A stretch of DNA of 64,000 nt, from NCBI GenBank assembly GCA_045632345.1, contig JAZQWM010000082.1, positions 26,220-90,219 of the forward strand. The letters are read 5' to 3'. Positions within the stretch are counted from its first letter, which is position 1. The number at the start of each line of letters is the position of its first letter. The DNA comes from Eubacteriales bacterium (GTDB lineage: Bacteria; Bacillota; Clostridia; Oscillospirales; CAG-272). The notes beneath the pieces were generated by a model. That model was given only the letters and a program-made list of their open reading frames with translations. It made no database searches and was not told where the DNA came from. Below, piece by piece: positions 2,784 through 55,893 of this stretch. A program made the position numbers and the translations under genes.

Positions 2784-2874
2784 ATAAACTATCTCCTTTA
2801 AATTAAAAATTAAATTGTCTGGGAAATAATCTATATCTAAATGAACCTCCTTTGCAGTCCATTACAAATGCATT

Positions 2875-2953
2875 GACCGACCGTTAGGGTGACCTAATGC
2901 TGTAAGCCTCAAGGGGCAATCCTCATAACAGCGTTCCAGAAGATTTGTCAGTC
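2875..2953 (-). promoter_or_regulatory. unclassified GC-rich structured 5' leader (candidate three-way junction) of the HNH gene
   Basis: Minus-strand pairings: GACUGAC/GUCGGUC (2947-2953 with 2875-2881), GCUGU/ACAGC (2928-2932 with 2899-2903), UUAGG-UCAC-CCUAA (2884-2897). GC content is clearly above the flanks. Confidence 0.3.
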
Positions 2954-2998
2954 GCCTTTAATTAAAAAAGGGGGTAGATTCGTTGTAACTGCATATTT

Positions 2999-3027
2999 AA
3001 TATAACACAATTAAAATAAAAAATCAA
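2999..3027 (-). promoter_or_regulatory. putative sigma-A promoter for the HNH leader
   Basis: Minus strand reads TTGATT-17 nt-TATATT. Confidence 0.4.
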
Positions 3028-6110: not shown

Positions 6111-6139
6111 AAAAAGCTCCACCAAGTGTGGAGCTTTTA
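6111..6139 (+). terminator. rho-independent terminator of the lipoprotein gene
   Basis: agctccac-caagt-gtggagct followed by TTTT. Confidence 0.8.
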
Positions 6140-6174
6140 CTATTTTAGCGGTTGGTGGCTGGTGGCTGAGTATG

Positions 6175-6280
6175 TCTGCTTCGCAGAGCGATATAACCGA
6201 ATACATTCGGTAGCGATATGCTTTCGCCAAACGAAAGCACGATATTCCGCCTAAGGCGGAGCGATATGCACCTTCGGTGC
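6175..6280. repeat. mini-hairpin array A1 (five hairpins joined by GCGATAT-type linkers)
   Basis: tctgcttcgcaga-GCGATAT-aaccgaatacattcggt-aGCGATAT-gctttcgccaaacgaaagc-aCGATAT-tccgcctaaggcgga-GCGATAT-gcaccttcggtgc. Colinear with 15538-15666. Confidence 0.9.
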
Positions 6281-6364
6281 GTGCTGACCACTGACATAGC
6301 CTCCCTTGTGTAAAGGGAGGGGGACCACGAAGGTGGTGGAAGGATTGTCCTTTCACTGACAACT

Positions 6365-6396
6365 AAAAAAATCCACGGATTGCTCCGTGGATTTTT
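6365..6396 (-). terminator. bidirectional rho-independent terminator (serves the minus-strand gene ending at 6400)
   Basis: A-run, tccacgga-ttgc-tccgtgga, T-run. The hairpin core cacggattgctccgtg recurs at 15427-15456. Confidence 0.85.
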
Positions 6397-10289: not shown

Positions 10290-10348
10290 GTTCGCTTCGC
10301 TCACAGGGGATAGGATATAGGAGATAGGGGCTCGCTTCGCTCACAGGG
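10290..10348. repeat. composite repeat: 18-mer / GWYAG heptad tract / 18-mer
   Basis: gttcgcttcgctcacagg (10290-10307), ggggataggatataggagatagggg (10306-10330, GATAG/TATAG/GATAG spaced 7 nt), ggctcgcttcgctcacaggg (10329-10348). Confidence 0.9.
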
Positions 10349-15267: not shown

Positions 15268-15317
15268 GGTTCGCTACGCGAACAGCAGTCAGCGGTTAGC
15301 CGTCAGCGGATAGCGAG
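15268..15317. repeat. 18-mer variant hairpin + GWYAG heptad tract directly after the AKR stop
   Basis: ggttcgctacgcgaac (perfect hairpin variant of the 18-mer), then GTCAG/GTTAG/GTCAG/GATAG at exact 7-nt spacing (15288-15313). Confidence 0.85.
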
Positions 15318-15426
15318 ATTTCAAAACGATTTGAAAAAATCAAGCGGTCAGCAAGCAGTGCCACGCCCCCGTCCCCTGTCACCGCTAAATTGATGAAAAG
15401 TTTTCAGTATAACATATTGTTTTAAT

Positions 15427-15456
15427 AAAAAATCACGGATTGCTCCGTGATTTTTT
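15427..15456. terminator. bidirectional rho-independent terminator
   Basis: A-run, atcacgga-ttgc-tccgtgat, T-run. Same core as 6365-6396. Confidence 0.85.
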
Positions 15457-15537: not shown

Positions 15538-15666
15538 TCTGCTTCGCAGAGCGATATGTCGTGCAATGCACGCGCGATATAACCGAATAACTTCGGTAGC
15601 GATATGCTTTCCCTAGGCGAAAGCTCGATATTCCGCCAAAGGCGGAGCGATATGCACCTTCGGTGC
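15538..15666. repeat. mini-hairpin array A2 (six hairpins, GCGATAT linkers)
   Basis: tctgcttcgcaga-GCGATAT-gtcgtgcaatgcacgc-GCGATAT-aaccgaataacttcggt-aGCGATAT-gctttccctaggcgaaagc-tCGATAT-tccgccaaaggcgga-GCGATAT-gcaccttcggtgc. Confidence 0.9.
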
Positions 15667-15700
15667 GTGCTGACGGCTAACAGCTAACAGCTAACGGCTA
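15667..15700. repeat. heptad tract (gctgacg gctaaca gctaaca gctaacg gcta) overlapping the GH78 stop codon
   Basis: CTRAC core every 7 nt on the plus strand, which reads GTTAG on the GH78 coding strand. Confidence 0.85.
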
Positions 15701-17830
15701 AAAAATATATTTTCCTGCTGAAACGTTGTGTGTTACGCCGTCAATTATAATCGTGCTTTCAACAGGTGTTTCGATTTCGTAGCGGATTTTGTTGTCAACG
15801 TGGTACCATTTTGAGGACACAACGCCTTGCTTTGTTTCAATTTTTGCGGACAGGTGGCTAAGCTTGTCCGTTGGCTTTGGTGCGATTAAGATTTTTTTAA
15901 AGCCGGGCGCAAGTGGCTTAATGCCACAGGCTTCCTCGTAAATCCAATCGGCAACGCTACCATAGGCGTAGTGGTTAAAGGAATTCATATCCTTTGACCA
16001 GAAATCGCCCTGCTCGTTTTTGCCGTCCCAATGCTCCCAAATTGTAGTTGCGCCTTGGTTAACAGAGTAGAGCCATGAAGGGAAATCCTCTTGTAAAAGT
16101 AGGTTATATGCAGTTTCTGTGTAGCCATTTTGAGATAACGCGTGGAGTAAAAACGGAGTGCCAACAAATCCTGTTTTTAGCTTGTTGCCGTTTTTCACAA
16201 TCATGGTATTTAGCTGCTTTGCTACCTTTTCCTTGTCGGTTGCTATATCAAAATAAAGTGCCAATGCACACTCTGTTTGAGTTTTGTATTTTTTAAAGGT
16301 TTTTCTAATTCTACTAAGTATTCTTTCTTGTAGGTGGCGGTATTTTTTACTGCTTCTGCCTAAAATTTCGCACACATCCCCCACTATTTTAACAGAATTG
16401 TAGTAAAATACAGAGCCGATAAAGTCATCATTTGATGAGCCTTTATAATCTCCTGCAGGAGCGTCAAGTCCTAGCCAGTCGCCAAATTGCCAGCATCCGT
16501 ACCATAAATATCTTCTTGTGGTGTGAGTGCGAATGTAGTCAAGGTATCTAACCATTGTTTTAAGTTGATTTTTAAGGAAATCAACGTTACCATAGGTCAT
16601 ATACATTGTGTATGGAATAATAGTTGAGCTATCTCCCCATACTGCTCCGCTTTCCTCACTTGTTGACCAGTCCCAGCATACGGTTTGAGGGATAATGTTT
16701 GGAATGTTGCCCTGTTTACCTTGGTCAAGGCGCATATCCGTTAGCCATTTAGTAAAGAATTTTTCTACGTCAAAATTATATGATGCAGTTCTGCAAAAGA
16801 CGGTGGCATCTCCTGTCCAGCCCTGTCTTTCATCTCTTTGAGGACAATCGGTAGGCACGTCAAGGAAGTTGCCCTTCTGTCCCCAAATTATATTTGAAAA
16901 TAGTTGGTTAAGCTTTGGATTTGAGCTTTCAATATAGCCTGTTCTCTTTATATCGGAGTGAACAACGATAGCCTTGATATTTTCCTTTGTAATTTCAGTC
17001 GGGAAGCTATCAACGCGCATATATCTAAATCCCCAAAACGCTAGCTTTGGTTTATAGGTATTTACGCCCTCATGACAAATATACTCAAATCTTGCCTTGG
17101 CATCACGGTAATTTTCGTTATAGAAGTTGCCGTATTTATCAAGGACCTCACAAACGGTAAATTCTACCTTATCGCCTTTTTGGGCGTTTACGGTAAACTC
17201 AAAATATCCTGTTAAATTTTGACCGAAATCCACGATTGTATCGCCGTTTGGAGCTTTAAATATAGACACAGGTCTAATATTTTCCTGCTCTACGATTTTT
17301 TCGCCCTGTTGCTTTACGATAATTTCTTTAGTGTGGTCAAGTATAGATACAGGCACTAAGGTGTTTTCAAAATTGCTATCGTAAATTTCCCCATCGTAAA
17401 GCTCTGCAAAGCGTAATTTGTCCTTGCGCCCTTGCCAGCTATTATCTGTTACAATCGTTTCCTTAGCTCCGTCCTTATATAAAATTTCAATTTGGCAAAT
17501 TAAAGCTTTTGGCACATCGTTTGCTACAACGAAGTTGATTTTGCCGTTATACCAGCCATCTCCCACTAAAATTTCAAGGGAGTTTTCCTTTTGGAGCATG
17601 CTTATAATATCATACTCCTGATACTGCACTCTTTTTCTTGAGGTAAAGCCGGGGGCTAAAATAAAATTCCCAACTCTTACTCCATTTAACTCAGGATAGT
17701 AACAGCCTAAGGAAGTAACAAACAGCGTTGCTTTTTTTACTTCCTTATTTATATTAAATTTCTTAACGAAGCATGATGGCTCATATAAAATATTATTTGG
17801 ATGTGTTATCCATTTTGCATTTTCAAACAT
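15698..17830 (-). CDS. alpha-L-rhamnosidase (GH78 family)
   Basis: GH78 signature region DVPTDCPQRDERQGWTGDA. Start overlaps the upstream stop (TAATG). Confidence 0.9.
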   Translation of the reverse strand: MFENAKWITHPNNILYEPSCFVKKFNINKEVKKATLFVTSLGCYYPELNGVRVGNFILAPGFTSRKRVQYQEYDIISMLQKENSLEILVGDGWYNGKINFVVANDVPKALICQIEILYKDGAKETIVTDNSWQGRKDKLRFAELYDGEIYDSNFENTLVPVSILDHTKEIIVKQQGEKIVEQENIRPVSIFKAPNGDTIVDFGQNLTGYFEFTVNAQKGDKVEFTVCEVLDKYGNFYNENYRDAKARFEYICHEGVNTYKPKLAFWGFRYMRVDSFPTEITKENIKAIVVHSDIKRTGYIESSNPKLNQLFSNIIWGQKGNFLDVPTDCPQRDERQGWTGDATVFCRTASYNFDVEKFFTKWLTDMRLDQGKQGNIPNIIPQTVCWDWSTSEESGAVWGDSSTIIPYTMYMTYGNVDFLKNQLKTMVRYLDYIRTHTTRRYLWYGCWQFGDWLGLDAPAGDYKGSSNDDFIGSVFYYNSVKIVGDVCEILGRSSKKYRHLQERILSRIRKTFKKYKTQTECALALYFDIATDKEKVAKQLNTMIVKNGNKLKTGFVGTPFLLHALSQNGYTETAYNLLLQEDFPSWLYSVNQGATTIWEHWDGKNEQGDFWSKDMNSFNHYAYGSVADWIYEEACGIKPLAPGFKKILIAPKPTDKLSHLSAKIETKQGVVSSKWYHVDNKIRYEIETPVESTIIIDGVTHNVSAGKYIF

Positions 17831-18900: not shown

Positions 18901-18959
18901 CTACCCGCTAACGGCTGGCGTTGCCCTGCTGACCACTGACCACTGACCACTGACCACTC
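18901..18959. repeat. heptad tract, nine units in register, ending in perfect (ACTGACC)x4
   Basis: ctacc..ctaac..ctggc..tgccc..ctgac x4, core positions 18901, 08, 15, 22, 29, 36, 43, 50, 57. Confidence 0.95.
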
Positions 18960-24755: not shown

Positions 24756-27266
24756 ATGAAAAAATTTACTCTATTAATTTTAGCGATTGTATGTGTTTTA
24801 GCATCAGTATTGCTTGTGTCATGTGGTAATACAAGCTCCGATACAACACAAACAAGATGCAAGCACGAATTTAAGGCTCCTGTTGTATTAAAAGAGCCAA
24901 GCTGCGCTGAGGACGGTTATGAATTTACAGAATGCCGTCTTTGTAACTATGGTACCGTAGAGGTTATCTATTCAACAAACGGCGGCCATAAGGTTGAGAA
25001 AATTCCTGCAGTTGAAGCAGACTGCTTTAACGAGGGTCTTTCCGAGGGCGAAAAATGCTCACTTTGTGGCGAAATCCTTAAGGGTCAGCTTCCAACAGGC
25101 TTAGTTTCACACGCTTATGCTGACGGAATTTGTATGATTTGCGGCTCTAACGCCAACAGCGACGGTATTGAATACGTTCTTAACTATGACAAAACATATT
25201 CAGTTAAGTCAATCGGTACCTGTAAGAGCGAAAACATCGTTATTCCTAGCGAATACGAGGGTGCAGCAGTTACTGCTATCTTAGACGGCGCATTCAAAAA
25301 CTGTAAGAACCTTAAATCAGTTGAGATTCCATCATCTGTAACAAAAATCGGTCAAGGTGCATTTGCAGGCTGTGCTAAGCTTGAAAAGCTCGTTCTTCCA
25401 TTTGTGGGCGGCAAGCTTAATATAGACGGCGTAGCTTCAAAATCTACACTTTTCGGCTACATCTTTGGCGAAGAAAAGGCTGACGGCTGCTACGGTGTAA
25501 AGCAATACATAACAAAGAGCGAGGGCTACACGGTATATATCCCTAACTCACTTAAAATTGTAAGAATTGACAACGCTTCATCCTTACCATATGGTACGTT
25601 CTACGGTGTAAAATCACTTACAAGCCTTGAAATCGGCGGTGATTTTTCTGTAATCGGCAACAGAGCCTTCTATGGCTGTACCTCTCTTGCGGAGCTATAT
25701 TTACCTGAATCAATTATGGAAATTGAGGGCTATGCATTTGGCAACTGCTCCGCATTAAAGACTGCTCCTGATATGTCCTTAGTTGAATCTCTTGGCGAAT
25801 ATGCATTCTATAACTGCTCATCACTTGAATCAATCGAGCTTGCAAGAGGCATTTACACTATCGGCACATATACGTTCTATAAATGCTCTGCTTTAACTGA
25901 GGTTTCATTACCAGACAGTATTCGCAAGATTGAGTCCTACGCTTTTGCTGCTTGCTCAAAGCTTGCTTCTATTACTCTTGGCGATAACGTAATTTCAATC
26001 GGCGAGGGTGCATTTACAAAGTGTACTGCTCTTACAAGCATTAATATTCCTGCTTCAGTTGAAACGTTAGAGGATAGCGTATTCAGCGGTTGTACTGCTC
26101 TTACGTCAGTTTCACTCAGCAGCGGAATTAAGGAGCTTGGCGATAGCTTATTCTATGGTTGCTCAGGCTTACAAACAATCGTAATTCCTGCAAGCGTAAC
26201 TGAGTTCGGTCAAGATATGTTTATTGGCTGTACTTCACTTAACGACCTTCAAATTGATGAAAACAACCCTGCATACTCATTTGAGGACGGCGTTTTATAT
26301 TCAAAGGACAAAAAGACACTTATTCTCTATATGCCAGGCAGAGAGGGTATCGTATTTGAAATTCCTTCAAACGTAGAAAAGATTGAAGCGTATGCATTCT
26401 ACGGCAACGAAACAATCAAGGAATTAACGGTTGGTAACAGCGTTAAGGAAATTGGCGAATACGCTTTTGCAAAATCAATGATTACAACTCTTGTATTCAA
26501 TGCAGATATGGACACAGTTCCTGCAAGAGCATTTAACAACTGCGAAAAGCTTGTATCAATCACTCTTGGCGAATCTATTGAGAAAATCGGCGATTATGCA
26601 TTCTATGGCGCAGGCTTCGAGGAAATCGTTTTACCTGAAAGCATAAAGGAAATCGGTAAATATTCATTTGCTAAAAACATAAACCTTAAATCTTTAACAA
26701 TCCCATCGAATGTAAAAACATTAGGCGAAGCATCATTCTATGCTTGTACTTCACTTGAAGAATTAGCTTTTGAAATCGGAGTACAAAAGATTGGTAAACA
26801 CGCATTTAACGGTTGTACAGGCTTAAAGAGTGTAGATTTAGGAGAGGGAGTGTCTGCGATTGAGGGTCAAGCATTCAGTGGTTGTACCGCACTTACAGAA
26901 ATTAATATCCCATCAAACGTTAAAACCTTAGGCGACGGTGTGTTTAACGCATGTACTGCACTTGAAAGCGTAACGTTTGGTGACGGAGTGCAAACAATTG
27001 GTAAGCAAGCATTCTACGGTTGCACAGGCTTAAAGAGTATCGTAATCGGCTCAGGCATAACCTCAATCGGTAGCTCTGCATTCAGCGGTTGTACAGCTTT
27101 AATGGAAATCTATATTCCCATTTCAGTAACTTCAATCGGCGATGGCGCATTCAATAAATGCCCAGAAACAGGCGAGATCAGATGTGAGGCTTCCGAAAAG
27201 CCATCAGGCTGGAGCGACAAGTGGAACTACTCCAAGCTTGGTGTTACTTGGGGCGTAATTGACTAA
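24756..27266 (+). CDS. BspA-type leucine-rich-repeat surface lipoprotein
   Basis: Lipobox LLVSCGN and more than 20 LRR units of the IGxxAFxGCxxLxxIxIP type. Confidence 0.9.
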   Translation: MKKFTLLILAIVCVLASVLLVSCGNTSSDTTQTRCKHEFKAPVVLKEPSCAEDGYEFTECRLCNYGTVEVIYSTNGGHKVEKIPAVEADCFNEGLSEGEKCSLCGEILKGQLPTGLVSHAYADGICMICGSNANSDGIEYVLNYDKTYSVKSIGTCKSENIVIPSEYEGAAVTAILDGAFKNCKNLKSVEIPSSVTKIGQGAFAGCAKLEKLVLPFVGGKLNIDGVASKSTLFGYIFGEEKADGCYGVKQYITKSEGYTVYIPNSLKIVRIDNASSLPYGTFYGVKSLTSLEIGGDFSVIGNRAFYGCTSLAELYLPESIMEIEGYAFGNCSALKTAPDMSLVESLGEYAFYNCSSLESIELARGIYTIGTYTFYKCSALTEVSLPDSIRKIESYAFAACSKLASITLGDNVISIGEGAFTKCTALTSINIPASVETLEDSVFSGCTALTSVSLSSGIKELGDSLFYGCSGLQTIVIPASVTEFGQDMFIGCTSLNDLQIDENNPAYSFEDGVLYSKDKKTLILYMPGREGIVFEIPSNVEKIEAYAFYGNETIKELTVGNSVKEIGEYAFAKSMITTLVFNADMDTVPARAFNNCEKLVSITLGESIEKIGDYAFYGAGFEEIVLPESIKEIGKYSFAKNINLKSLTIPSNVKTLGEASFYACTSLEELAFEIGVQKIGKHAFNGCTGLKSVDLGEGVSAIEGQAFSGCTALTEINIPSNVKTLGDGVFNACTALESVTFGDGVQTIGKQAFYGCTGLKSIVIGSGITSIGSSAFSGCTALMEIYIPISVTSIGDGAFNKCPETGEIRCEASEKPSGWSDKWNYSKLGVTWGVID

Positions 27267-33058: not shown

Positions 33059-33161
33059 AGCTAAATTTGCGTTGCACGCAAGCTAAATTTGGTCGCGATA
33101 TGCTTTCGCCAAGCGAAAGCGTGATATGCACCTTCGGTGCGCGCTAACCGCTGACAGCTGC
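33059..33161. repeat. mini-hairpin array A3 + CTRWC heptad tract
   Basis: aGCTAAATTT-gcgttgcacgc-aaGCTAAATTT-ggtc-GCGATAT-gctttcgccaagcgaaagc-gTGATAT-gcaccttcggtgc-gcgctaaccgctgacagctgc. The last two hairpins are shared with A1 and A2. Confidence 0.9.
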
Positions 33162-33185
33162 AAACAACTGAAAGGAGTGAACCCC

Positions 33186-33908
33186 ATGTACTACATACAC
33201 GGCTCAGAGGACAGCACTGACAAGGATATAATTTTCGTTTTTGATACACTGCCGTCCTTTCAGGAATGTAAGAGGTTTTGCGACGGACGCGGAATTGAAA
33301 ACGGAAATATTGTTGTAATTAAGGACGGCGTTATTGCTTCCGCATATAAAGGAAGCATTGACGAAGTAAACAACGGACTTTTCCATACCTACAAGCTACA
33401 TGAGCAAAAGTTCCCTTTAATTATTGAAAAAAGCGTTGAGCGCGACGTGATTTTAAAGGACATTAAGGTTGTAAGAAAAATTCTTTCTACCTTTACAAGA
33501 ACTCAGTTTCGTGCAACCGTAAAGGAAGCTCTGCGTGGTAGCTGGGATATGAAGGTTTCCCTTTTGAAAAATCTTGACTATTACGCTATTGATTTTGATA
33601 ACGTGCAAAAGTCCACTAAAGCCGATTTATTAAAGTCATTTGCCTTTCAGTTAGGACAGGCAATGGCGCTACATGAGGGGGTTGAGCTTTACACTAAACG
33701 CGAAATTGGCAGCTACTTCCCTGAGCTAAACGATTATTTACAAAGAAAAGAAGCAAGCGCTGATACTATAATTAAGTTTATAAAACGCTACGCTTCACTT
33801 CTTGAAGCTATTCCTACAACGTCAAACGGAAGCTCTGTATATTTCGGCGCGCCGTTCAATAGACGATACGATATAAGCAAGGAAGAATTTATTTCAGCTA
33901 AAGATTAA
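33186..33908 (+). CDS. hypothetical protein
   Basis: AAAGGAG RBS 8 nt before ATG 33186. The track's 20-codon N-terminal extension only translates the repeat. Confidence 0.7.
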   Translation: MYYIHGSEDSTDKDIIFVFDTLPSFQECKRFCDGRGIENGNIVVIKDGVIASAYKGSIDEVNNGLFHTYKLHEQKFPLIIEKSVERDVILKDIKVVRKILSTFTRTQFRATVKEALRGSWDMKVSLLKNLDYYAIDFDNVQKSTKADLLKSFAFQLGQAMALHEGVELYTKREIGSYFPELNDYLQRKEASADTIIKFIKRYASLLEAIPTTSNGSSVYFGAPFNRRYDISKEEFISAKD

Positions 33909-34769: not shown

Positions 34770-34800
34770 AGGCTCTCCTTAAAGCAAAATTCATACTATT

Positions 34801-34829
34801 ATTTTATCACACAAGCAAATAAAAGTCAA
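34801..34829 (-). promoter_or_regulatory. putative promoter of the radical SAM gene
   Basis: Minus strand reads TTGACT-17 nt-TAAAAT with an upstream TG. Confidence 0.6.
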
Positions 34830-34860
34830 TTTGTCAAAGGTGTTGTAACAAAAAACGAAT

Positions 34861-35307
34861 TTATGCCCCATAATCTTCTAATAAGTCAATAAATCGGCTT
34901 CTATATTCTGCTTGTTTGCCCATATCATCTTGCCAACATGCAGTTGCCCAATGATATAAATCCTCATTTTCAACTTTGATATGCGGATTCGCACCATTTT
35001 CTAAGAGAAGCTTAACAATGTCCAAGCGAATTTCATTTTCTTCTGGATCGTCTTCGGAGTACTGTAAATTCCATAAAACATTTTCTGTTCCGTTGTCGTA
35101 CACCAAGTTGGGATCTGCGCCGTTTTTTAAAAGTAATTTTACCATTTCATAATTTGCGTATGTTGTCGCATAATCAAGCAATGTTGTGTTGTACCCATAT
35201 CTTAAAGTAACAAACTCTTGGTTAATATCGATTTGTTTCATCATTTGATCAGCTTTCTCTTTATCAAAATCTTTTATTAAACACATTTTTTCAAGCTCGT
35301 GTATCAT
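34861..35307 (-). CDS. ankyrin-repeat protein
   Basis: ANK motifs (LLKNGADPN, LLENGANPH). Confidence 0.8.
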   Translation of the reverse strand: MIHELEKMCLIKDFDKEKADQMMKQIDINQEFVTLRYGYNTTLLDYATTYANYEMVKLLLKNGADPNLVYDNGTENVLWNLQYSEDDPEENEIRLDIVKLLLENGANPHIKVENEDLYHWATACWQDDMGKQAEYRSRFIDLLEDYGA

Positions 35308-35385
35308 TTTGCTTCTCCTTTCTGTTTATATTATGTAACGCAAACTGTTGTCAAAAGTGTTGTCGCACAAAATTGCAATATGTAC

Positions 35386-35422
35386 AAAAAGTGGCTTGGA
35401 ATAAGGCTTCCAAGCCACTTTT
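35386..35422 (-). terminator. bidirectional rho-independent terminator ending the guaA 3' UTR
   Basis: AAAAA-gtggcttgg-(10 nt)-ccaagccac-TTTT. Confidence 0.75.
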
Positions 35423-35520
35423 AAACCTTATTTATTCCTTGTTTTTTAATGTTCGGCAAAGAAAAACTATGTCTTTGGCATATTCTTTTGCTTTGTTTCT
35501 CAAAACGCTATCTGACATAT

Positions 35521-35755
35521 CAAAACCTCAGAGTTTTGGTTTTATAGTTATGAGTTTGGCTCTGCCAAACGTTATGATGTGCTACCGCACAGTTATGATT
35601 TTGCCTACGGCAAAAGTTATGATATGATTGCCTAGCTAACTTCAAGCGTGGCTCCGCCACTCATAACTGCGAGCGTCGCGAGCATCATAACTACGCTAAG
35701 CGTATCATAGCTTGCCGTTAGGCAATCATAGTTGATTTTCGCGTTACGAAAATCA
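35521..35755. repeat. mini-hairpin array A4 with GTTATGAT linkers that switch to the complementary ATCATAAC/ATCATAG linkers midway
   Basis: Ten hairpins (e.g. gtttggc-tct-gccaaac, gtgc-tacc-gcac, ttttgcc-tac-ggcaaaa, gtggc-tcc-gccac, acgc-taa-gcgt, ttgcc-gtta-ggcaa, tgattttcg-cgtta-cgaaaatca). The last hairpin contains the guaA stop codon. Confidence 0.85.
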
Positions 35756-36757
35756 CTCCCACTCAATAGTGCCAACAGGCTTTGGTGTAAGGTCGTAGAG
35801 AACTCTATTGATGCCCTCAACCTCTGCCGTGATTCTATCTGTGATTTTGTGAAGAACCTTATATGGAATTTCTTCGATTGTTGCTGTAATTGCCTTCTTT
35901 GTGTTTACGGCACGGATAATTGCAGGCCATCCCTCATATCTTGCATCGTCCTTAACGCCTACGCTCTTGATGTCAGGAATTACAACGAAGTATTGCCATA
36001 CCTTCTTATTAAGACCGCACTTGTCAAACTCCTCACGAAGAATTGCATCAGCCTCACGGAGTGCGTGAAGTCTGTCTCTTGTGATAGCGCCTAAGCAACG
36101 AACGCCAAGACCTGGTCCTGGGAATGGCTGACGGTAAACCATAGAATGTGGTAAGCCAAGAGCTTCGCCAACAACTCTAACCTCATCTTTATATAAGAGC
36201 TTAAGTGGCTCAACAAGCTCAAATTTAAGGTCATCAGGAAGTCCGCCAACGTTGTGGTGGGATTTAACTGCCTTTTTGCCCTCTCCTTGCTCAATGCTCT
36301 CTAAAATGTCAGGATAAATTGTGCCTTGCGCTAAATATTCAACGCCTTCAAGCTTTCTAGCCTCTTCAGCAAAAACCTCAATAAATTCCTTACCGATAAT
36401 CTTTCTCTTGCTTTCTGGGTCGCTAACACCTGCTAAAAGGTTAAGGAAACGGTCTGTTGCGTCAATGTAGATAAGATTTTCGCCAAGCATTTTGCCAAAA
36501 ACCTCACAAACGCCTTCGCTTTCGTTCTTTCTCATTAAACCATGGTTTACATGTACGCAATATAATTGCTTGCCGATAGCCTTGCTTAAAAGCGCCGCTA
36601 AAACTGATGAGTCAACACCACCTGAAAGAGCCAAGAGAACCCTCTTATCTCCAACCTGGTTCTTGATTTCCTCAATTTGTTGAGCGATAAATGCTTCTGC
36701 TAATTTTTTTGTTTTGATTTCCTTCATTGTTTGTGGTCTTACTGCTTGTTGTGCCAT
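35753..36757 (-). CDS. guaA: GMP synthase ATP-pyrophosphatase/dimerisation subunit only (no glutamine amidotransferase domain)
   Basis: PP-loop LALSGGVDSSV and the canonical C-terminus ...GTIEWE. At 334 aa it lacks the ~190-aa GATase domain of single-chain bacterial GuaA. Confidence 0.9.
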   Translation of the reverse strand: MAQQAVRPQTMKEIKTKKLAEAFIAQQIEEIKNQVGDKRVLLALSGGVDSSVLAALLSKAIGKQLYCVHVNHGLMRKNESEGVCEVFGKMLGENLIYIDATDRFLNLLAGVSDPESKRKIIGKEFIEVFAEEARKLEGVEYLAQGTIYPDILESIEQGEGKKAVKSHHNVGGLPDDLKFELVEPLKLLYKDEVRVVGEALGLPHSMVYRQPFPGPGLGVRCLGAITRDRLHALREADAILREEFDKCGLNKKVWQYFVVIPDIKSVGVKDDARYEGWPAIIRAVNTKKAITATIEEIPYKVLHKITDRITAEVEGINRVLYDLTPKPVGTIEWE

Positions 36758-38543: not shown

Positions 38544-38574
38544 TTCGTTCCTTTCAGTCACTTCATTCAAGGAG

Positions 38575-39112
38575 TCAGGGGACAGGGGTTCGCTTCGCTC
38601 ACAGGGATAGTTAGTAAACAATTTTTTATAACTAATCCACAGCTATCTCGCATTTTTCCAAATCACCTGAATAAATCCTACCTTTAAAGTGCATTTAATC
38701 ATTTAGACTTAATTTTTTCACTATTGCATTTATTAGTTTAGCTACTTCTTTACAACCTTGCATAACAGTATCTACTGTTTCTTCTTTTTCAAAATAGCCA
38801 AGCATTTTACAAATTTCTAACTGTGTTTCAAGTTCTGCTCTTGACGCATTTGCGATAAATAAAAACTGTATGTATTCCTTTGTGCTTCTTCGCTCGTATC
38901 CTTCTGCAATGTTGGAAGGAATAGAAATAACGCTTCTTCTCATTTGATCTGCTAAAGCAAACCTCTCATTGTTTGGTAATTGATTTATAAGCCCATATGT
39001 ATCTTTTACCAAATCCATTGCTTTTTGCCAAACCACTAAATCTCTATAATCTCTCATAAACTAATCCCCCTGTGAGCAAGGCGAACCCCTGTCTCCTGTC
39101 CCTTGTCCCCTG
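38575..39112 (-). mobile_element. inverted-repeat-bounded cassette carrying a four-helix-bundle gene (IVS-like / MITE-like element)
   Basis: Left arm is tcaggggacaggggttcgcttcgctcacaggg (38575-38606). The reverse complement of the right arm (39066-39112) is caggggacaagggacaggagacaggggttcgccttgctcacaggggg. The core of about 25 nt matches with 2 mismatches. Confidence 0.65.
38695..39057 (-). CDS. four-helix-bundle protein (23S rRNA intervening-sequence protein family, Avd-like)
   Basis: MRDYRDLVVWQKAMDLV...ISIPSNIAEGYERRSTKEYIQFL...ELETQLEI matches the family signature closely. Its RBS (AGGGGG) lies inside the cassette arm. Confidence 0.9.
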   Translation of the reverse strand: MRDYRDLVVWQKAMDLVKDTYGLINQLPNNERFALADQMRRSVISIPSNIAEGYERRSTKEYIQFLFIANASRAELETQLEICKMLGYFEKEETVDTVMQGCKEVAKLINAIVKKLSLND

Positions 39113-39277
39113 TTATACTATTTCATAAGAAAACATTTCGTACTTCAAATGTGTGCCAATATCAACGCCCTCAGGCAATAATGCCATTGCGATAAATATT
39201 TCGTTTTCTGTGTTTTCCTCAAGTATGTAGGCGTATTCGCCCTCAATTTTTGTAACTACATAGTATTTTGTTTCCAT
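39113..39277 (-). CDS. small protein, DUF3006-like (54 aa; not in the ORF track)
   Basis: AGGGAG RBS. METKYYVVTKIEGEYAYILEE...LLPEGVDIGTHL resembles the DUF3006 pattern. Confidence 0.55.
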   Translation of the reverse strand: METKYYVVTKIEGEYAYILEENTENEIFIAMALLPEGVDIGTHLKYEMFSYEIV

Positions 39278-41091: not shown

Positions 41092-44000
41092 ATGAGAAAC
41101 AAATTAAGAAAAGCGGTTGCGCTATTTTTGGCGGTGCTAATGCTTTTACCTTTAGTGCTTACTTGTGTTAGTGCAAGTAGTGGCGTTTACGATCCAACGT
41201 CAGAGGAAACGAAAAAGCTTGGCGCTACCTTTGATAGCAAAACTACGGCAAAAATGGAAAAGATTTTGCCATCTCTTCCTTACACCTATGAGGCGGAAAT
41301 TCAAATTAACAATTCTGCCCGTGGCGGTGTAATTTTAGGCAACTATTCCGGTAAGGGCTACTCTATTAGCTTTGAAATCGATACTAACGGTAACCCTCGT
41401 ATTTATGCGGCGTATGGAAACGATAACACAAGCACTACTTTTAAAAACGTTAGCGTTTTATCAACTGAGCTTGTTAGATTAACTATTACCGTTGATAAAG
41501 AAAAAAATATGGCACATTGCTACATTAACGGTGATTTAAAGCAATCATTACCATTCAGCTTTGAAAAAATTGGAAACACCATTCCAACCGGCAAGTGTTT
41601 AATGGTAGGCGGTGACCACCGTAATAACAATACCGTGCCTTTCCTTGGTCAAATTAAGAGTGTTTACGCATATAGTGATATGCGTACCGCTGATGAAGTA
41701 GCTAAAGGTACAGATTTAAACGATGATAACCTTTTAGTGGCTTATGAATTTATGCAATCAGGCGGTAAAAACCTTTCAAAATATGAAGGCTATGACCTTG
41801 TTACAACTGATTGGAAGCTTGATATTGCAGGCGAAAACGCGTTAACGTTTTCCGCCAACAATACTTATCAAGTAATTAAACCATTTGAAGAGCCGGGCTT
41901 AACCTATGAAGCGTTAGTTTACTTCCCACAAAGCTCCGACAACTCAAGAGGTGGCGTTGTGCTTGGTAACTACGAAACCGGTACAAACAAATGTATCAAC
42001 TTTGAGTTTAAAGAAAACGGCAACCCAAGACTTTATTTTGAGCTTGGCGGATACAGTAACGCAAGAGACTTCCACTTTAAAGAAATTGACGTAAGACAAA
42101 GCAGATTTGTTTTCGTTACAATTACAGTTGACCCAGCAAAGGGCGAGGGCAAATGCTATATTGACGGTGAGCTTGCACAAACCATAACGTTAAACCCATT
42201 TACAATCTCAGAAGTAGCTTATGAAAAAGCAATGTACCTTGGTAGAGATATAAGAACTACCGACGGTTACCCATTTAAGGGTGCTATTAAAAATCTTGCG
42301 GTATATAGCAACATTCGTACAGCTTCCGAAATTAAAGCGGATATGAACGAATTTAACGAAAATGACAACAACGTTATTGCAATGTACGAGTTTAACACCG
42401 ACACCGGTAGAAGAGATATAAGCGGTAACGGTTATCATATTTGTTATAACGGTGAAACAAAGCCTAATGATGACTTCAATCCTGACGTGCCTGAAAATCC
42501 TGACACACCGGATGAACCCGATACACCGGTTGATCCCGACACTCCAGATGAGCCTGACACACCAGATGAGCCAGACACACCTATCGAATTTGACGGCTTA
42601 ACCTTTACCTCAAATGATTTTGCTATTGTTGGTAAGACGTTCCCATTAGACAGCGAAGGACTTACCTTCGAGGCGGTTATTCAGCTTTCAAAGGACGTTA
42701 CAAATCGTGGCGGTATTATTTTAGGTAACTATAAGGATACTAATCACTTTGTAAACTTTGAAATTGTCAAAAACGGTGTTCCAAGACTTTGTATAACAAG
42801 CTATGGTAGCGTTGGCACAAGACACGATTTTCAATTCACAGGCGTTGACGTAAGAGGGGATAAGCCTGTGCATTTAGCCATCACTCTTGATAAAACAACA
42901 GGCCATGCGATTTGCTATATTAACGGTGAATTTGCAGGAAAGATAGAATCAAAAAAAGAAATTGCTCTTAACCCAGGCGTTAACGATTACTATATGATTA
43001 TCGGTAACGACCTACGAACAAACGACTTCCAAAACTTCAAGGGCGTTATCGGCTCTGTGGCAGTTTATACCGACGTAAGAAATGAAAACGAAATCAGATT
43101 AGACGCAAAAGGAATTAATCTTGAAAGCGATAACCTTGAAATGTACTTTAATTTAGCAGGCTTAGAAACTGGCGATAATATCGCCGACTTAAGCGGCAAC
43201 GGTTACGATGCTAAATATGGCACAAGAGTACAAGCGGAAAAATCTAACTGGATTTACAAGGATGAGGTTAAGGATTACCTTTACTCCTTTGCAGTTGTGG
43301 GCGATACTCAAATTATCGCAAACAGATACGGCAGCAGCTTTGGTAAGATTTACGATTGGATTTTAAATAACCAAGTATCTAAAAAGATTGCATACGTATT
43401 CGGTCTTGGCGACATTACCGACGGAAATAGCGCAAACGAATGGGCGCTTGCTAAAGAGCATATTTTAAATAAGCTTACAGGCATTATCCCTTACTCAGTT
43501 GTAAGAGGTAACCACGACGGCAAGACTCAAATTAATAACGTTTTCGCAACAGAAGAATATATGAGCCAATTTGACGGCTTCTACGCTGAAAACGATATTA
43601 CAAACTCATATAGATTCTTTGAAATTGCAGACACTAAGTATCTCTTTATCACACTTGACTACGGCGCAAATGATGATATTCTTAACTGGGCAGGGGAAAT
43701 TATTAAAGCAAACCCAGACAGAAAGGTAATTATCACAACCCACGCATACCTATATAGAGACGGTACAACTCTTGACCAAAAAGATGTTTGCCCACCTGCA
43801 ACAACAGGCGGCTCAAACAACGGCGACCATATGTGGGATAAGCTTATCTCAAAATATGAAAATATCTACCTTGTTATGTCAGGACACGACCCATATGCAA
43901 ACGTTGTTGTAACACAAACAGAAGGCGTAAACGGTAACATTGTAACTCAGATTTTAACTGACCATCAAGGCGTTGATACATCAACACCAACAGGTATGGT

Positions 44001-44667
44001 AACAATGCTTTATATAAAAGCAGACGGAAGCATTGAGGTTGAAACCTACTCAACAATTCAAGAAGCATACTACAAGGAAAACAACCAATTTGTAATTGAG
44101 GAAACTGAGCATAGCTATACTGAAAACGTATCATACGCTTATGCAAACGGCTACCTACAAAATGGTGTATTTAGTGCAACCTGTGAGCATTGCGGCAAAG
44201 TGGTTACAAAGGAAATTGCTCCTATAATCGTATTCCACGGATACTCAATAAAAGAGGATAATACCGCGATGTGTGTGGATTATTCGGTAAATTACACCTT
44301 ACTAAACGCTTATGAAAGCGCAAACGGTAAGAGCGTAATTTTAGGTGTTGTTGCATGCGGATATGATAACCTAGTAAACAAGGACGGCAAGCCAATAAAT
44401 GCAGATGGAAGCGTGGCAAGCGTAACTAGCGGAAGAGTTGTAAATAACGTAATTGAAAGCGAATGTACATCCGTTTCACTCATTATGCGCACATCAGACT
44501 GGTCAAAATATGCTGACCTTAACACAATTCTTTGCATGTATATAATTGACGAAAATGGTGTAAGCTACGTTTGCAATGAGGAAATCACAACAGCAAGCGC
44601 AATTTCCGTAACCTATAACGCTATTTTAAACAATCAAAGCAATGAAGGAGGTAATGATAATGAATAA
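41092..44667 (+). CDS. secreted multidomain protein: three LamG/concanavalin-like modules, Pro/Asp/Thr linker, calcineurin-like metallophosphoesterase domain, C-terminal domain
   Basis: Signal peptide; thrice-repeated RGG(V/I)(I/V)LGNY...F(E)(I/F)xxNGxPR(I/L) modules; phosphoesterase motifs (VVGDTQ, GLGDITDG, VRGNHDG). Confidence 0.8.
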   Translation: MRNKLRKAVALFLAVLMLLPLVLTCVSASSGVYDPTSEETKKLGATFDSKTTAKMEKILPSLPYTYEAEIQINNSARGGVILGNYSGKGYSISFEIDTNGNPRIYAAYGNDNTSTTFKNVSVLSTELVRLTITVDKEKNMAHCYINGDLKQSLPFSFEKIGNTIPTGKCLMVGGDHRNNNTVPFLGQIKSVYAYSDMRTADEVAKGTDLNDDNLLVAYEFMQSGGKNLSKYEGYDLVTTDWKLDIAGENALTFSANNTYQVIKPFEEPGLTYEALVYFPQSSDNSRGGVVLGNYETGTNKCINFEFKENGNPRLYFELGGYSNARDFHFKEIDVRQSRFVFVTITVDPAKGEGKCYIDGELAQTITLNPFTISEVAYEKAMYLGRDIRTTDGYPFKGAIKNLAVYSNIRTASEIKADMNEFNENDNNVIAMYEFNTDTGRRDISGNGYHICYNGETKPNDDFNPDVPENPDTPDEPDTPVDPDTPDEPDTPDEPDTPIEFDGLTFTSNDFAIVGKTFPLDSEGLTFEAVIQLSKDVTNRGGIILGNYKDTNHFVNFEIVKNGVPRLCITSYGSVGTRHDFQFTGVDVRGDKPVHLAITLDKTTGHAICYINGEFAGKIESKKEIALNPGVNDYYMIIGNDLRTNDFQNFKGVIGSVAVYTDVRNENEIRLDAKGINLESDNLEMYFNLAGLETGDNIADLSGNGYDAKYGTRVQAEKSNWIYKDEVKDYLYSFAVVGDTQIIANRYGSSFGKIYDWILNNQVSKKIAYVFGLGDITDGNSANEWALAKEHILNKLTGIIPYSVVRGNHDGKTQINNVFATEEYMSQFDGFYAENDITNSYRFFEIADTKYLFITLDYGANDDILNWAGEIIKANPDRKVIITTHAYLYRDGTTLDQKDVCPPATTGGSNNGDHMWDKLISKYENIYLVMSGHDPYANVVVTQTEGVNGNIVTQILTDHQGVDTSTPTGMVTMLYIKADGSIEVETYSTIQEAYYKENNQFVIEETEHSYTENVSYAYANGYLQNGVFSATCEHCGKVVTKEIAPIIVFHGYSIKEDNTAMCVDYSVNYTLLNAYESANGKSVILGVVACGYDNLVNKDGKPINADGSVASVTSGRVVNNVIESECTSVSLIMRTSDWSKYADLNTILCMYIIDENGVSYVCNEEITTASAISVTYNAILNNQSNEGGNDNE
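42481..42583. repeat. in-frame short tandem repeats encoding the PDTPDEPDTP linker
   Basis: cctgacacaccggatgaa / cccgatacaccggttgat / cccgacactccagatgag... degenerate 18-nt units. Confidence 0.8.
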
Positions 44668-45977: not shown

Positions 45978-45985
45978 ACGTAAAA

Positions 45986-46170
45986 GGGGATAGGGTATAG
46001 GGGCTCATTGCATTCGCAGGGGTTCGCTATGCTCACAGGAGAAATTAGTTCGAACGAAAATAACGAAGAAAAGAAATAAGCACTTTCAAGTGGCGTGGAT
46101 AATATAAAATGTCAAAGGATAATGCGATAGAGTAATTACCCTATCCCCTATCCCCTGACCCCTGTCCCCT
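45986..46170 (+). mobile_element. gene-less inverted-repeat element in the pheS-pheT spacer (same family as 38575-39112)
   Basis: Left arm ggggatagggtatagggg (45986-46003) plus 18-mer ggttcgctatgctcacagg (46021-46039). Right arm ccctatcccctatcccctgacccctgtcccct (46139-46170). The arms pair at 16 of 17 positions. Confidence 0.65.
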
Positions 46171-46174
46171 TGAG

Positions 46175-46193
46175 TGACTGAAAGGAACGAAAT
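46175..46193 (+). promoter_or_regulatory. shared RBS leader TGACTGAAAGGAACGAA(AT) immediately 5' of the pheT ATG
   Basis: The 17-nt string is identical to the reverse complement of 38544-38560, upstream of the esterase ATG. A related ACTGAAAGGAGTGAAC lies at 33167-33182. Confidence 0.8.
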
Positions 46194-48683: not shown

Positions 48684-48723
48684 GGCTCGCTTCGCTCACA
48701 GCCGTCAGCCGTCAGCGGTTAGC
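48684..48723. repeat. 18-mer + GWYAG heptad tract
   Basis: ggctcgcttcgctcacag, then ccgtcag ccgtcag cggttag c. Confidence 0.9.
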
Positions 48724-48765: not shown

Positions 48766-48795
48766 TAGCTACTAACCACTAGCCACTTACCACTA
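48766..48795. repeat. heptad tract (tagctac taaccac tagccac ttaccac ta)
   Basis: 7-nt periodicity. It reads as the GWYAG type on the minus strand, downstream of the minus-strand gene. Confidence 0.8.
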
Positions 48796-48823
48796 AAAAA
48801 GCAACCGAAATCGGTTGCTTTTG
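48795..48823 (-). terminator. rho-independent terminator (minus strand)
   Basis: AAAAAA-gcaaccga-aa-tcggttgc-TTTTG (bidirectional form). Confidence 0.85.
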
Positions 48824-54338: not shown

Positions 54339-54410
54339 CTAACAATCACTAATCTATCCCGCTGACCGCTATCGGCTAACCGCTGACAGCTGTGAGCGAC
54401 CGAAGGGAGC
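54339..54410. repeat. CTRWC heptad tract + 18-mer variant forming the 5' UTR and RBS of the GT2 gene
   Basis: ctaac..ctatc..ctgac..ctatc..ctaac..ctgac..ctgtg (69-73, 76-80, 83-87 and 90-94 in exact 7-nt register), then ctgtgagcgaccgaagggagc supplying AGGGAG 8 nt before the ATG. Confidence 0.85.
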
Positions 54411-55654: not shown

Positions 55655-55685
55655 GACACATCCTAAAGGGGTGTGTCATTTTTTT
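55655..55685 (+). terminator. rho-independent terminator
   Basis: gacacatcc...gggtgtgtc followed by ATTTTTTT. Confidence 0.8.
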
Positions 55686-55864
55686 AGCCGCCAGCCGTTA
55701 GCAGTCAGCCCGCACCGAAGGTGCATATCGCTACGAAGCAGTGCTTCGTTTTATCGCTGAATTACGGAGTAATTTTATATTGCTCGCCGTAGGCGTATCT
55801 CGCTCTGCAAAGCAACGCTTTGCAATTTACCTGTTGCGAAGCAACAATTTACCGCTGGCGGCTA
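55685..55864. repeat. mini-hairpin array A5 (inverted orientation) enclosed by an 11-bp inverted repeat
   Basis: TAGCCGCCAGC (55685-55695) ... gcaccgaaggtgc-ATATCGC-acgaagcagtgcttcgt-tTTATCGC-...-gccgtaggc-...-tgcaaagcaacgctttgca-ATTTACC-tgttgcgaagcaaca-ATTTACCgc ... GCTGGCGGCTA (55854-55864). Confidence 0.85.
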
Positions 55865-55893
55865 AAAAATCCACACCTCTCGGTGTGGATTTT
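55864..55893 (-). terminator. rho-independent terminator (minus strand)
   Basis: AAAAAA-tccacacc-tctc-ggtgtgga-TTTT. Confidence 0.85.

Follow-up and report, generated by a model that had tools for sequence, protein, structure and literature searches.

What are the strings of short, dissimilar hairpins, all joined by the same 7-nt linker, that recur between the genes of a gut bacterium, and which known system, if any, do they belong to? The question arises from positions 15538–15666 of a 64,000-nt stretch of an Eubacteriales genome (the whole stretch analysed, hereafter the window). An initial annotation, made from the sequence alone, had described six GC-rich hairpins there and related copies at 6175–6280, 33095–33140, 35521–35755 and 55712. 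It had called the architecture the inverse of CRISPR and had recognised no named family in it.

Structure and setting of the hairpin arrays

The window contains one complete element with a decayed gene (35432–35755, see below) and four orphan arms, which we call arrays A–D. Direct reading bears out the strings of hairpins with a constant linker at 15538–15666: perfect Watson–Crick mini-hairpins alternate with N[CT]GATAT linkers there, at 6175–6280 and at 33095–33140, and in inverted orientation at 55712–55854. The arms and the composite beside array B are as follows.

15538–15666, + strand: array A, six mini-hairpins and five 7-nt linkers (GCGATAT four times, TCGATAT once)
6175–6280, + strand: array B, five hairpins and four linkers, colinear with array A minus unit 2
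6281–6362, + strand: right flank of array B, a remnant of a CTGACCA-type tract and three further hairpins (CCTCCCTT..AAGGGAGG, ACCACgaagGTGGT, GGAAGGAttgTCCTTTC)
33059–33140, + strand: array C, a hairpin with AGCTAAATTT on either side and, after it, units 4 and 6, preceded by GCGATAT and GTGATAT respectively
55712–55854, − strand: array D, a second subfamily, whose + strand reads GCACCgaaGGTGC ATATCGC ...

Array A has stems of 4–7 bp and loops of mostly 3 nt. Its first half reads TCTGCttcGCAGA GCGATAT (gt)CGTGCaatGCACG(c) GCGATAT (a)ACCGAAtaacTTCGGT(a) GCGATAT, and its second half, from unit 4, reads GCTTTCcctaggcGAAAGC TCGATAT TCCGCCaaaGGCGGA GCGATAT GCACCttcGGTGC. It is flanked by the stop codon of a minus-strand rhamnosidase gene (15698) and by a bidirectional terminator (15426–15455). 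Array B is, as first described, a colinear copy without unit 2 (90% identity to array A over 109 nt), and the composite on its right flank is also found 3′ of an array in another locus (L054). The supposed copy of the last two units of array A at 33095–33140 instead consists of units 4 and 6, with unit 5 missing; ahead of it, at 33059–33090, lies the extra hairpin flanked by AGCTAAATTT, and the whole of array C sits between two co-directional genes. The copy at 55712 is indeed inverted, but its terminal unit is all it has in common with array A. It represents a second subfamily, 97% identical to loci L074 and L075, with linkers that drift (TTTATCGC, TATATTGC, TATCTCGC and ATTTACC twice). All arrays in the window are intergenic, and they often lie beyond terminators, as had been proposed: array B is placed between two of them (6112–6138 and 6367–6396), and array D is 3′ of one (55655–55677) and 5′ of a hairpin followed by a T-run (55864–55893, read directly from the sequence).

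These arrays are real and their stems are under structural constraint. The motif DCGATAT occurs 50 times in the window against 21.5 ± 5 expected, a count that 0/100 shuffles reached, with five copies falling within ~100 nt, and a blind scan of the window for hairpin clusters recovers the array loci. Folding z-scores against shuffles are −3.9 for array A and −6.2 for the element at 35547–35755. Each arm is a run of 3–6 perfect Watson–Crick mini-hairpins in which ...GATAT immediately precedes each hairpin and a single base separates its end from the following [CT]GATAT, so that the unpaired linker is exactly 7 nt, as is the case in 102/152 unique units. Across stems we count ~900 Watson–Crick pairs versus 14 isolated mismatches, and G–U pairs are rare. 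Aligning 24 homologous right arms taken from different species shows both sides changed in 12/32 pairs (69 cells), a value reached by 0/500 shuffles and with slid controls far lower. Among module families, differences are located in loops and stems change pairwise (for example, CGTGC/GCACG to CGTAC/GTACG). The covariation of right arms and the comparison of module families thus uphold the early observation that loops and the first linker base vary between copies with conserved stems, and show that the stems are kept by compensatory change. Orthologues of array A in two other genomes (loci L030 and L033) are 96–97% identical to it, and the flanking genes 84–85%.

The arrays are embedded in GC-rich tandem heptamer tracts (CTGACCA, GCTAACN, CCCTATC and others), of which the window holds at least 12, all intergenic. 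Those that adjoin arrays A–D include the following.

15667–15701, + strand: heptamer tract, GCTAACN about four times (period 7, 3.7 copies), directly adjoining both array A and the minus-strand gene's stop codon
6148–6174, + strand: heptamer tract of TGGTGGC type, left flank of array B
33141–33161, + strand: heptamer tract (GCGCTAACCGCTGACAGCTGC) that separates array C from the RBS of the following gene
55687–55711, + strand: heptamer tract flanking array D, its AGCCGCCAGC complementary to GCTGGCGGCT at 55855–55864

Only these flanking tracts are tandem 7-bp repeats of intergenic DNA in the strict sense, whereas the arrays have hairpins between their 7-mers.

GCGATAT arrays are a linker variant of Gut-1

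A permissive Rfam scan matched Gut-1 (RF01706), a family with the consensus hairpin-GUGAAAU-hairpin-GUGAAAU-hairpin-GUGAAAU. The initial annotation had stated that a hit to a described RNA family would count against its claim of a class without a name, and Gut-1, which shares the architecture, is in substance such a hit. Copies in the window score 24–30 bits (30.1 at 6237–6302 and 23.9 at 15597–15678), below the gathering threshold of 50 bits, while sister arrays that carry the GCACCTTCGGTGC unit pass it (67.1 bits for L028, 54.7 for L008 and 53.6 for L005), their linkers being GTGATAT or ATGAAAT. GCGAUAU and GUGAUAU linkers are both present in the Gut-1 seed alignment, and the flanks of seed sequences include inverted AUAUCAC arms after a tRNA gene and terminator. 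The two traits by which Gut-1 is recognised also recur here: at least three consecutive hairpins with a conserved purine-rich linker of 7 nt (position 2 is different in GCGAUAU), and residence in non-coding DNA of uncultured gut Firmicutes (MAGs of Clostridia, Oscillospiraceae and Acutalibacteraceae from ruminant and other animal guts). A further Rfam match, to Staphylococcus-1 RNA, is misleading, since it points to the wrong organism.

Gut-1 and the window arrays have in common short, GC-rich, variable hairpins on a constant 7-nt linker (GUGAAAU or GUGAUAU in Gut-1), gut Clostridia as habitat, and placement after terminators and tRNA genes. They differ in that the window arrays use GCGAUAU throughout, extend to as many as six hairpins and have heptamer tracts on their flanks, whereas the Rfam model comprises three hairpins of one arm, apparently on the less favoured strand. 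The GCGATAT arrays are therefore a linker variant of Gut-1, within an extended family found in uncultured gut Clostridia, rather than a class of their own. Weinberg 2010 reports Gut-1 from human gut metagenomes, in no sequenced organism, and rates it as probably a non-coding RNA on the basis of covariation (PMC2864571). We found no further paper on Gut-1 in the literature after 2010.

A wider scan placed the arrays in named lineages. Among 185,579 species genomes searched with the 19-nt terminal module GATATGCACCTTCGGTGCG, 74 loci carry it. A few of these are evident chance matches (in a Pseudomonadota MAG; inside coding sequence), and the remaining loci belong to Eubacteriales, Clostridia, Oscillospiraceae and Acutalibacteraceae MAGs of animal guts, with the module present in dozens of species-level Clostridia MAGs. 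This recurrence across many independent MAG projects rules out an assembly artefact, an alternative raised at the outset. Two genomes, JAZSHT and JBGVPY, contain many window-type arrays, in which the module order is 1-2-3-4-5-6-7 and varying subsets are present. The GMP synthase encoded in the window has matches of up to 99% in MAGs of uncultured Clostridia and Ruminococcaceae sampled from ruminants. An exact search with the protein of one window gene gave no match.

Loop sequences are strongly polar with respect to strand. Read in the Gut-1 orientation, 100/220 triloops are TNC and 1/220 is GNA, and 46/94 tetraloops are TNNC and 0/94 GNNA, with UNCG in just 2/94; a 5′-C...G-3′ pair closes 193/220 triloops. 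It follows from the excess of TNC and TNNC that the strand opposite the Gut-1 sense carries C(GNA)G and C(GNRA)G caps, a one-strand preference that had been noticed early and proves far stronger than it first appeared. In array A the Gut-1 sense is the + strand, and the C(GNA)G strand, the − strand, is sense for the rhamnosidase 3′ UTR. GCGNAGC mini-hairpins are extraordinarily stable and nuclease-resistant, while hairpins with TTC loops are conventional (PMC13037366). Our nearest-neighbour DNA folding does not tell GAA from TTC loops, and standard parameters likewise do not separate them (PMC13037366). The position of the stable GNA and GNRA caps, opposite the modelled strand, suggests that the Rfam Gut-1 model is drawn on the less favoured strand. 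The polarity of the loops shows which strand matters and is compatible with either folded RNA or folded DNA. Wobble asymmetry, considered as a test of strand and of RNA versus DNA, was dropped because two counts disagree (12 A·C vs 1 G·T among internal mismatches in the Gut-1 orientation; 12 G·T vs 10 A·C in an alignment-based count).

Complete elements stand head to head upstream of PF05635 genes

Single arms are part of a larger architecture, in which two arms stand head to head, a PF05635 gene follows, and linker type tracks protein clade. The window itself contains one such element. The region 35521–35755 had been counted among the arrays of the same kind; it is a hairpin array, but its linker is different, GTTATGA at first and then the reverse complement TCATAAC, which makes it a head-to-head pair of arms.

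35547–35755, − strand: complete element, immediately 3′ of the guaA-C stop codon; a left arm with NNTATGAT linkers, a centre, and a right arm with TCATAAC linkers
35432–35518, − strand: PF05635-type remnant of 28 codons (MSDSVLRNKAKEYAKDIVFLCRTLKNKE*), directly downstream of the right arm

In a single comparison, this remnant is 63% identical over 27 aa to the N-terminus of the protein clade associated with ATATAAC linkers (E 3e-12); a Pfam search of the 28 aa gave no match, and the 64-kb window holds no intact PF05635 gene.

In other genomes the cassette is complete. Left arm, centre and inverted right arm are paired in L021, L064 and many other loci, and in the cassette a terminator comes first, then the left arm, the centre, the right arm (inverted, with the linker in reverse complement), a promoter or RBS, and the PF05635 gene. 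The gene right after the right arm belongs to PF05635 (23S_rRNA_IVP, an Avd-like four-helix bundle; 74.7 bits) and is the neighbour in ~20 species among loci selected by DNA, while divergent copies (48–60% identity) have arrays with other linkers upstream. Against selection bias, we also fetched 80 metagenome loci by protein alone, and nearly all of these have the layout terminator, left arm, centre, right arm, promoter or RBS. A strict detector, requiring at least two copies of a 6-mer followed by at least two of its reverse complement at a spacing of 14–45 nt, is positive for 30/45 upstream regions, compared with 1/68 control regions from the same contigs and 1/900 shuffles. The linker follows the protein clade (ATATCGC, ATATCGA, ATATCAC / ATATAAC, GCATCAT, ATTTAGC, ATTTCAC, ATTTCAT, ACTTCAC and CTATTCA), and the window element fits this pattern, with a remnant that resembles the ATATAAC clade and TCATAAC linkers. 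These findings suggest that the Rfam Gut-1 model describes one arm of a larger inverted element. We found no published report of a head-to-head element upstream of a PF05635 gene, and the available portions of the Weinberg 2010 paper and supplement mention neither the head-to-head form nor the PF05635 gene (PMC2864571).

The first hairpin finds a complement to its 5′ arm (plus loop or linker) in the short centre (AAATCCTCAC / GTGAGGATTT; ATTCGCCTCAC / GTGAGTGGCGAAT; GATATTTGCTT / AAGCAAATATC), so an arm can close into a multi-hairpin domain. When both arms are folded as a single strand, they zip through their linkers and the hairpins protrude (z −5.3).

A profile of the PF05635 neighbours matches PDB entries 2RLD (E 8e-39) and 2GSC, in each of which five chains are deposited. 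The homologue Avd is reportedly a pentamer that binds DGR RNA and DNA. The family was called functionally uncharacterised in 2024 (bioRxiv 10.1101/2024.02.27.582315), and its members have been remarked on as frequent guests of cas loci. A set of 2.9 million viral contigs contains just 10 relatives of the gene, so a phage origin was rejected. No transposase or RAYT-like gene lies next to any array in the examined loci, and we saw no intact PF05635 gene in the examined pieces of JAZSHT and JBGVPY, the two genomes richest in window-type arrays. Upstream of more distant PF05635 genes (L165, L169, L168 and L171) there are head-to-head heptamer tracts with zero hairpins. The 7-nt unit may therefore be the common denominator of arrays and plain tracts, with hairpins as optional spacers.

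Possible roles and comparison with known systems

From the observed association we infer that the best overall explanation is one in which the arrays are dispersed binding arrays for cognate PF05635 proteins, a reading that we hold tentatively and rate at a little under an even chance. The 7-nt linkers would then be repeated recognition sites of a cognate PF05635 oligomer, and hairpins with C(GNA)G or C(GNRA)G caps (on the ATATCGC/ATTTCAC strand) would keep these linkers single-stranded and adjacent. An arm would thereby offer a multivalent platform on one strand, either in UTR RNA or in transiently unpaired DNA. Located beside its own PF05635 gene, such a platform could mediate autoregulation, and orphan arms such as A–D might supply extra binding or stabilising sites elsewhere, spreading, by analogy, as REPs do around a RAYT gene.

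Several points weigh against PF05635 binding, among them the lack of an intact PF05635 gene in the window and in the examined pieces of JAZSHT and JBGVPY. The correlation between clade and linker could be plain cassette co-inheritance. A promoter separates the right arm from the gene in many cassettes, which places the arms outside that mRNA, and the GNA loops of the two arms are on opposite strands, so that one transcript cannot show both arms in the favoured form. Orphan arms lack a clear orientation bias relative to neighbouring genes, and an arm usually has four linkers, not five. A bolder version of the same idea is possible but doubtful: hairpin arrays and plain heptamer tracts would be two guises of a periodic 7-nt array that PF05635 four-helix-bundle oligomers recognise, with a separate 7-mer for each protein clade and with arrays that spread as orphan arms, in a widespread and unrecognised protein–repeat partnership akin to RAYT–REP. 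If true, this might also explain the STRRs of cyanobacteria and the embedding of the gene in rRNA intervening sequences and DGRs.

We weighed three rival explanations, none of which accounts for the exact 7-nt linker or for the correlation of linker with clade. The arrays might act as RNA independently of any protein, as extensions of 3′ or 5′ UTRs whose nuclease-resistant hairpins block exoribonucleases or insulate transcripts, like REP in E. coli, with the linker as a trace of unit duplication. We regard this as improbable, even though array A and the 35547–35755 element lie in 3′ UTRs, array C lies between co-directional genes, folding z-scores are strong, covariation is present, GNRA tetraloops are classic RNA caps, and mini-hairpins guard against 3′ exonucleases (PMC13037366). 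It leaves unexplained a conserved linker that stays fixed at 7 nt amid hairpin turnover, as well as linkers that track clades and the head-to-head form upstream of PF05635. Arrays B and D, moreover, lie beyond terminators, orientation bias is absent, and G–U pairs are rare.

Mobility brings in another explanation, that the arrays are selfish DNA of a MITE or REP/BIME-like kind, moved by an enzyme that reads ssDNA hairpins, with PF05635 as a frequent passenger or preferred landing site. Arms do move or get replaced as whole units, and hairpin-plus-linker units are also lost internally. Array B has a 99% identical counterpart, L065, in another species at a locus that is not orthologous, and the site orthologous to array B in L070 is occupied by a different subtype. 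Array C is missing from conspecific strains (99% protein identity), in which a heptamer tract stands alone at that site. The spot downstream of guaA, where the complete element lies, is variable between strains as well. Within orphan arms A–D, whole hairpin-plus-linker units are gained and lost. Arrays are found after terminators, after tRNA genes and at junctions of variable islands, and a crude ORF-based count of their orientation against neighbouring genes (10 '--', 5 '++', 6 convergent and 1 divergent) reveals avoidance of divergent (promoter) regions and otherwise no usable orientation bias. Near-identical copies at non-orthologous sites across species, replacement of subtypes, presence/absence among strains and this placement all favour selfish DNA, as do perfect Watson–Crick stems and C(GNA)G loops known from DNA mini-hairpins.

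Nevertheless, the absence of a transposase or RAYT-like gene adjoining any array in the examined loci, and hairpin sequences that, unlike those of REPs, are not conserved, make selfish mobility rather unlikely, and the clade–linker correlation points to the adjacent protein over an unseen enzyme. The strain comparison at the array C site indicates replacement rather than clean insertion, and no target-site duplication or clean insertion boundary is definable in it. A model in which each hairpin insertion duplicates a 7-nt target is conceivable: unit changes are always bounded by linkers (array A vs arrays B and C), but slippage or recombination between repeats would predict this equally well. 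Finally, Rfam files the family as a free-standing sRNA gene ('Gene; sRNA') on the GUGAAAU strand, the strand on which its model matches, in agreement with the covariation-based rating of Weinberg 2010. We consider this very unlikely, given that the loops of that strand are UNC or UNNC with 2 UNCG in 94 tetraloops, that the stable GNA/GNRA caps are opposite, that the motif usually lies after a terminator and lacks its own promoter, and that it is just one arm of a larger inverted element.

Binding by PF05635 proteins thus remains the reading we prefer, and the main value of the present results lies in showing Gut-1 in its full architecture, together with a partner protein family that is uncharacterised. 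Gut-1 has stood in Rfam since 2010 without organism, function or partner and is now placed in named MAG lineages. PF05635 (Avd, 23S rRNA IVS protein, 'four helix bundle protein') is a large family that is called uncharacterised outside DGRs. Tying the Gut-1 element to PF05635 genes through a clade-specific linker turns two orphan families into one testable hypothesis. The intergenic DNA of some gut Clostridia contains numerous orphan arms and heptamer tracts, which is relevant to annotation and, since contigs often break at these arrays, to assembly.

Several known systems resemble the arrays in part. Intrinsic terminators were rejected, as no array unit is followed by a T-run and the true terminators are outside the arrays. 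Integron attC sites and CALINs (57–141 nt, with R''-L''...L'-R' core sites of RYYYAAC / GTTRRRY type and extrahelical bases) were likewise rejected, the units here being perfect hairpins of 13–20 nt with linkers off that consensus. CRISPR shares the periodic alternation of constant and variable parts and the gain and loss of whole units. Its repeats, however, are 21–48 nt long, with non-palindromic spacers of similar length and usually cas genes nearby, whereas here an unpaired 7-nt segment is constant, what varies is a palindrome of 9–20 nt with no sign of foreign origin, copies are dispersed and cas genes are absent. The phrase inverse of CRISPR describes the architecture fairly without naming a mechanism. 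The STRRs of filamentous cyanobacteria are intergenic 7-bp tandem repeats, proposed to form hairpins or stabilise transcripts (PMC2670836). They resemble the heptamer tracts described here and differ in phylum and in sequence; we found no link between STRRs and PF05635 in the literature, and the connection is our own suggestion.

REP/BIME sequences with their RAYT genes (Enterobacteria, Pseudomonas) come closer. They too are dispersed intergenic arrays of palindromes with short conserved motifs between units, located mostly between convergent genes and after terminators, and there too inverted copies flank the cognate gene and the type of repeat is specific to the protein clade. The arrays are nonetheless not REP/BIME: REP palindromes are conserved, carry a GTAG-type head and alternate in orientation, while here hairpins differ within and between arrays, the linker is the conserved part and units all have one polarity. 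RAYT, moreover, is a Y1 (HUH) transposase, whereas the partner of complete elements in the examined loci is a four-helix bundle without a known catalytic motif. The remaining comparison is with relatives of that partner, the Avd of DGRs and the ORF of 23S rRNA intervening sequences. A reverse transcriptase, template repeat or rRNA context is lacking in our elements, and the partner of the protein is a periodic array. All three nevertheless combine a small PF05635 four-helix-bundle gene with structured nucleic acid: Avd as an oligomer bound to structured RNA, the IVS ORF inside a long inverted repeat of rRNA, and the genes described here beside head-to-head arms of hairpins.

Heptamer tracts with and without hairpins

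GC-rich tandem heptamer tracts occur at least 12 times in the window, every one of them intergenic, with units that include CTGACCA, GCTAACA, CCCTATC and CCGCTGA among others. Several lie immediately 5′ of a ribosome-binding site (RBS) or immediately past a stop codon, and some genes are bracketed by complementary tract types (for example, AGGGGAT at 45985 and CCCTATC at 46139). Head-to-head heptamer tracts also precede divergent genes of PF05635, the Avd-like family found directly downstream of the complete head-to-head hairpin array; these tracts have no hairpins between their units, which read TTACYTW five times and then its complement, TCATTAT and then its complement, or AATTCGT three times. 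Their position before divergent PF05635 genes ties the hairpin arrays to simple tracts of 7-nt units.

Heptamer tracts (window coordinates; L-numbers are loci from other genomes or metagenomes)
6153-6168; 10305-10328; 15284-15314; 15676-15701: window tracts 1-4
18929-18958; 39086-39113; 45985-46003; 46139-46170: window tracts 5-8
48699-48716; 48771-48796; 54359-54392; 55684-55710: window tracts 9-12
L165, about 1180-1290; L169, about 2770-2900: hairpin-free head-to-head tracts
L168 and L171, just 5′ of position 3001: hairpin-free head-to-head tracts

A module that recurs in the window, as GTTCGCTTCGCTCAC(AG) or as the complementary CTGTGAGCGAAGCGAAC, includes GCGAAGC and has a perfect-hairpin variant, GTTCGCTACGCGAAC. 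In other species this module ends the right arm of the array just 5′ of the RBS of PF05635 genes of the ATATCGC-linker clade. Several unrelated window genes have in common a near-identical segment, (G)TGACTGAAAGGA(A/G)(C/T)GAA..ATG, located 3′ of a heptamer tract, and at these genes the ribosome-binding region itself appears to belong to a repeated module.

Module and pre-start segment (window coordinates)
10290-10306; 10332-10348; 38583-38600; 48684-48700; 15269-15283; 39070-39086: GCGAAGC-containing module
33162-33188; 46171-46196; 38560-38590 (minus strand): shared pre-start segment

Arrays at variable sites, putative island borders and contig ends

The GMP synthase of the window is a separate C-terminal (ATP pyrophosphatase) subunit, guaA-C (334 aa, 35753-36757, minus strand), equal in length in relatives across the clade. 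The site directly past its stop codon is a strain-variable hotspot, holding a 111-nt spacer in one strain, a 2.6-kb insert (a sigma-70 factor and a 487-aa gene) flanked by duplicated GAGTGGGAATAA derived from the guaA 3′ end in another, and, in the window, an ankyrin-repeat gene (34861-35307) alongside the head-to-head array and the remnant of a PF05635-type gene. In two species, a duplicated 3′-end fragment of an rlmD-like methyltransferase gene (...CACGTGGAAAGTTTAGTTTGTCTGACGAAGCAGACAAACTAA) lies 5′ of the head-to-head array, in contexts that differ between the two. This looks like an island integrated at the 3′ end of the rlmD-like gene, with the array at its border.

Hotspot and duplicated fragment
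window 34770-35760; L001 11006-13650; L003 2366-2476: guaA-C 3′ hotspot
L021 2390-2600; L064 2340-2385: duplicated rlmD-like 3′ fragment

Many MAG contigs start or stop within or next to an array (L010, L020, L022, L041, L054, L063, L070 and others). Array repeats appear to break short-read assemblies, so array copy numbers in MAGs are probably too low.

Other repeats and a known RNA family

The BspA-type leucine-rich-repeat genes at 131-1285 and 24756-27266 have stretches of DNA in common that belong to repeat families D6, D10 and D13, and an 18-nt PD(T/E)P-type tandem repeat (42479-42581) lies inside the gene at 41092-44667. Finally, the segment at 2861-2986 (minus strand), 5′ of a 445-aa gene (1446-2783) in this Clostridia MAG, matches Staphylococcus-1 RNA (RF03112) over its full length and above threshold, at 107.9 bits, and the motif evidently extends beyond Staphylococcus.
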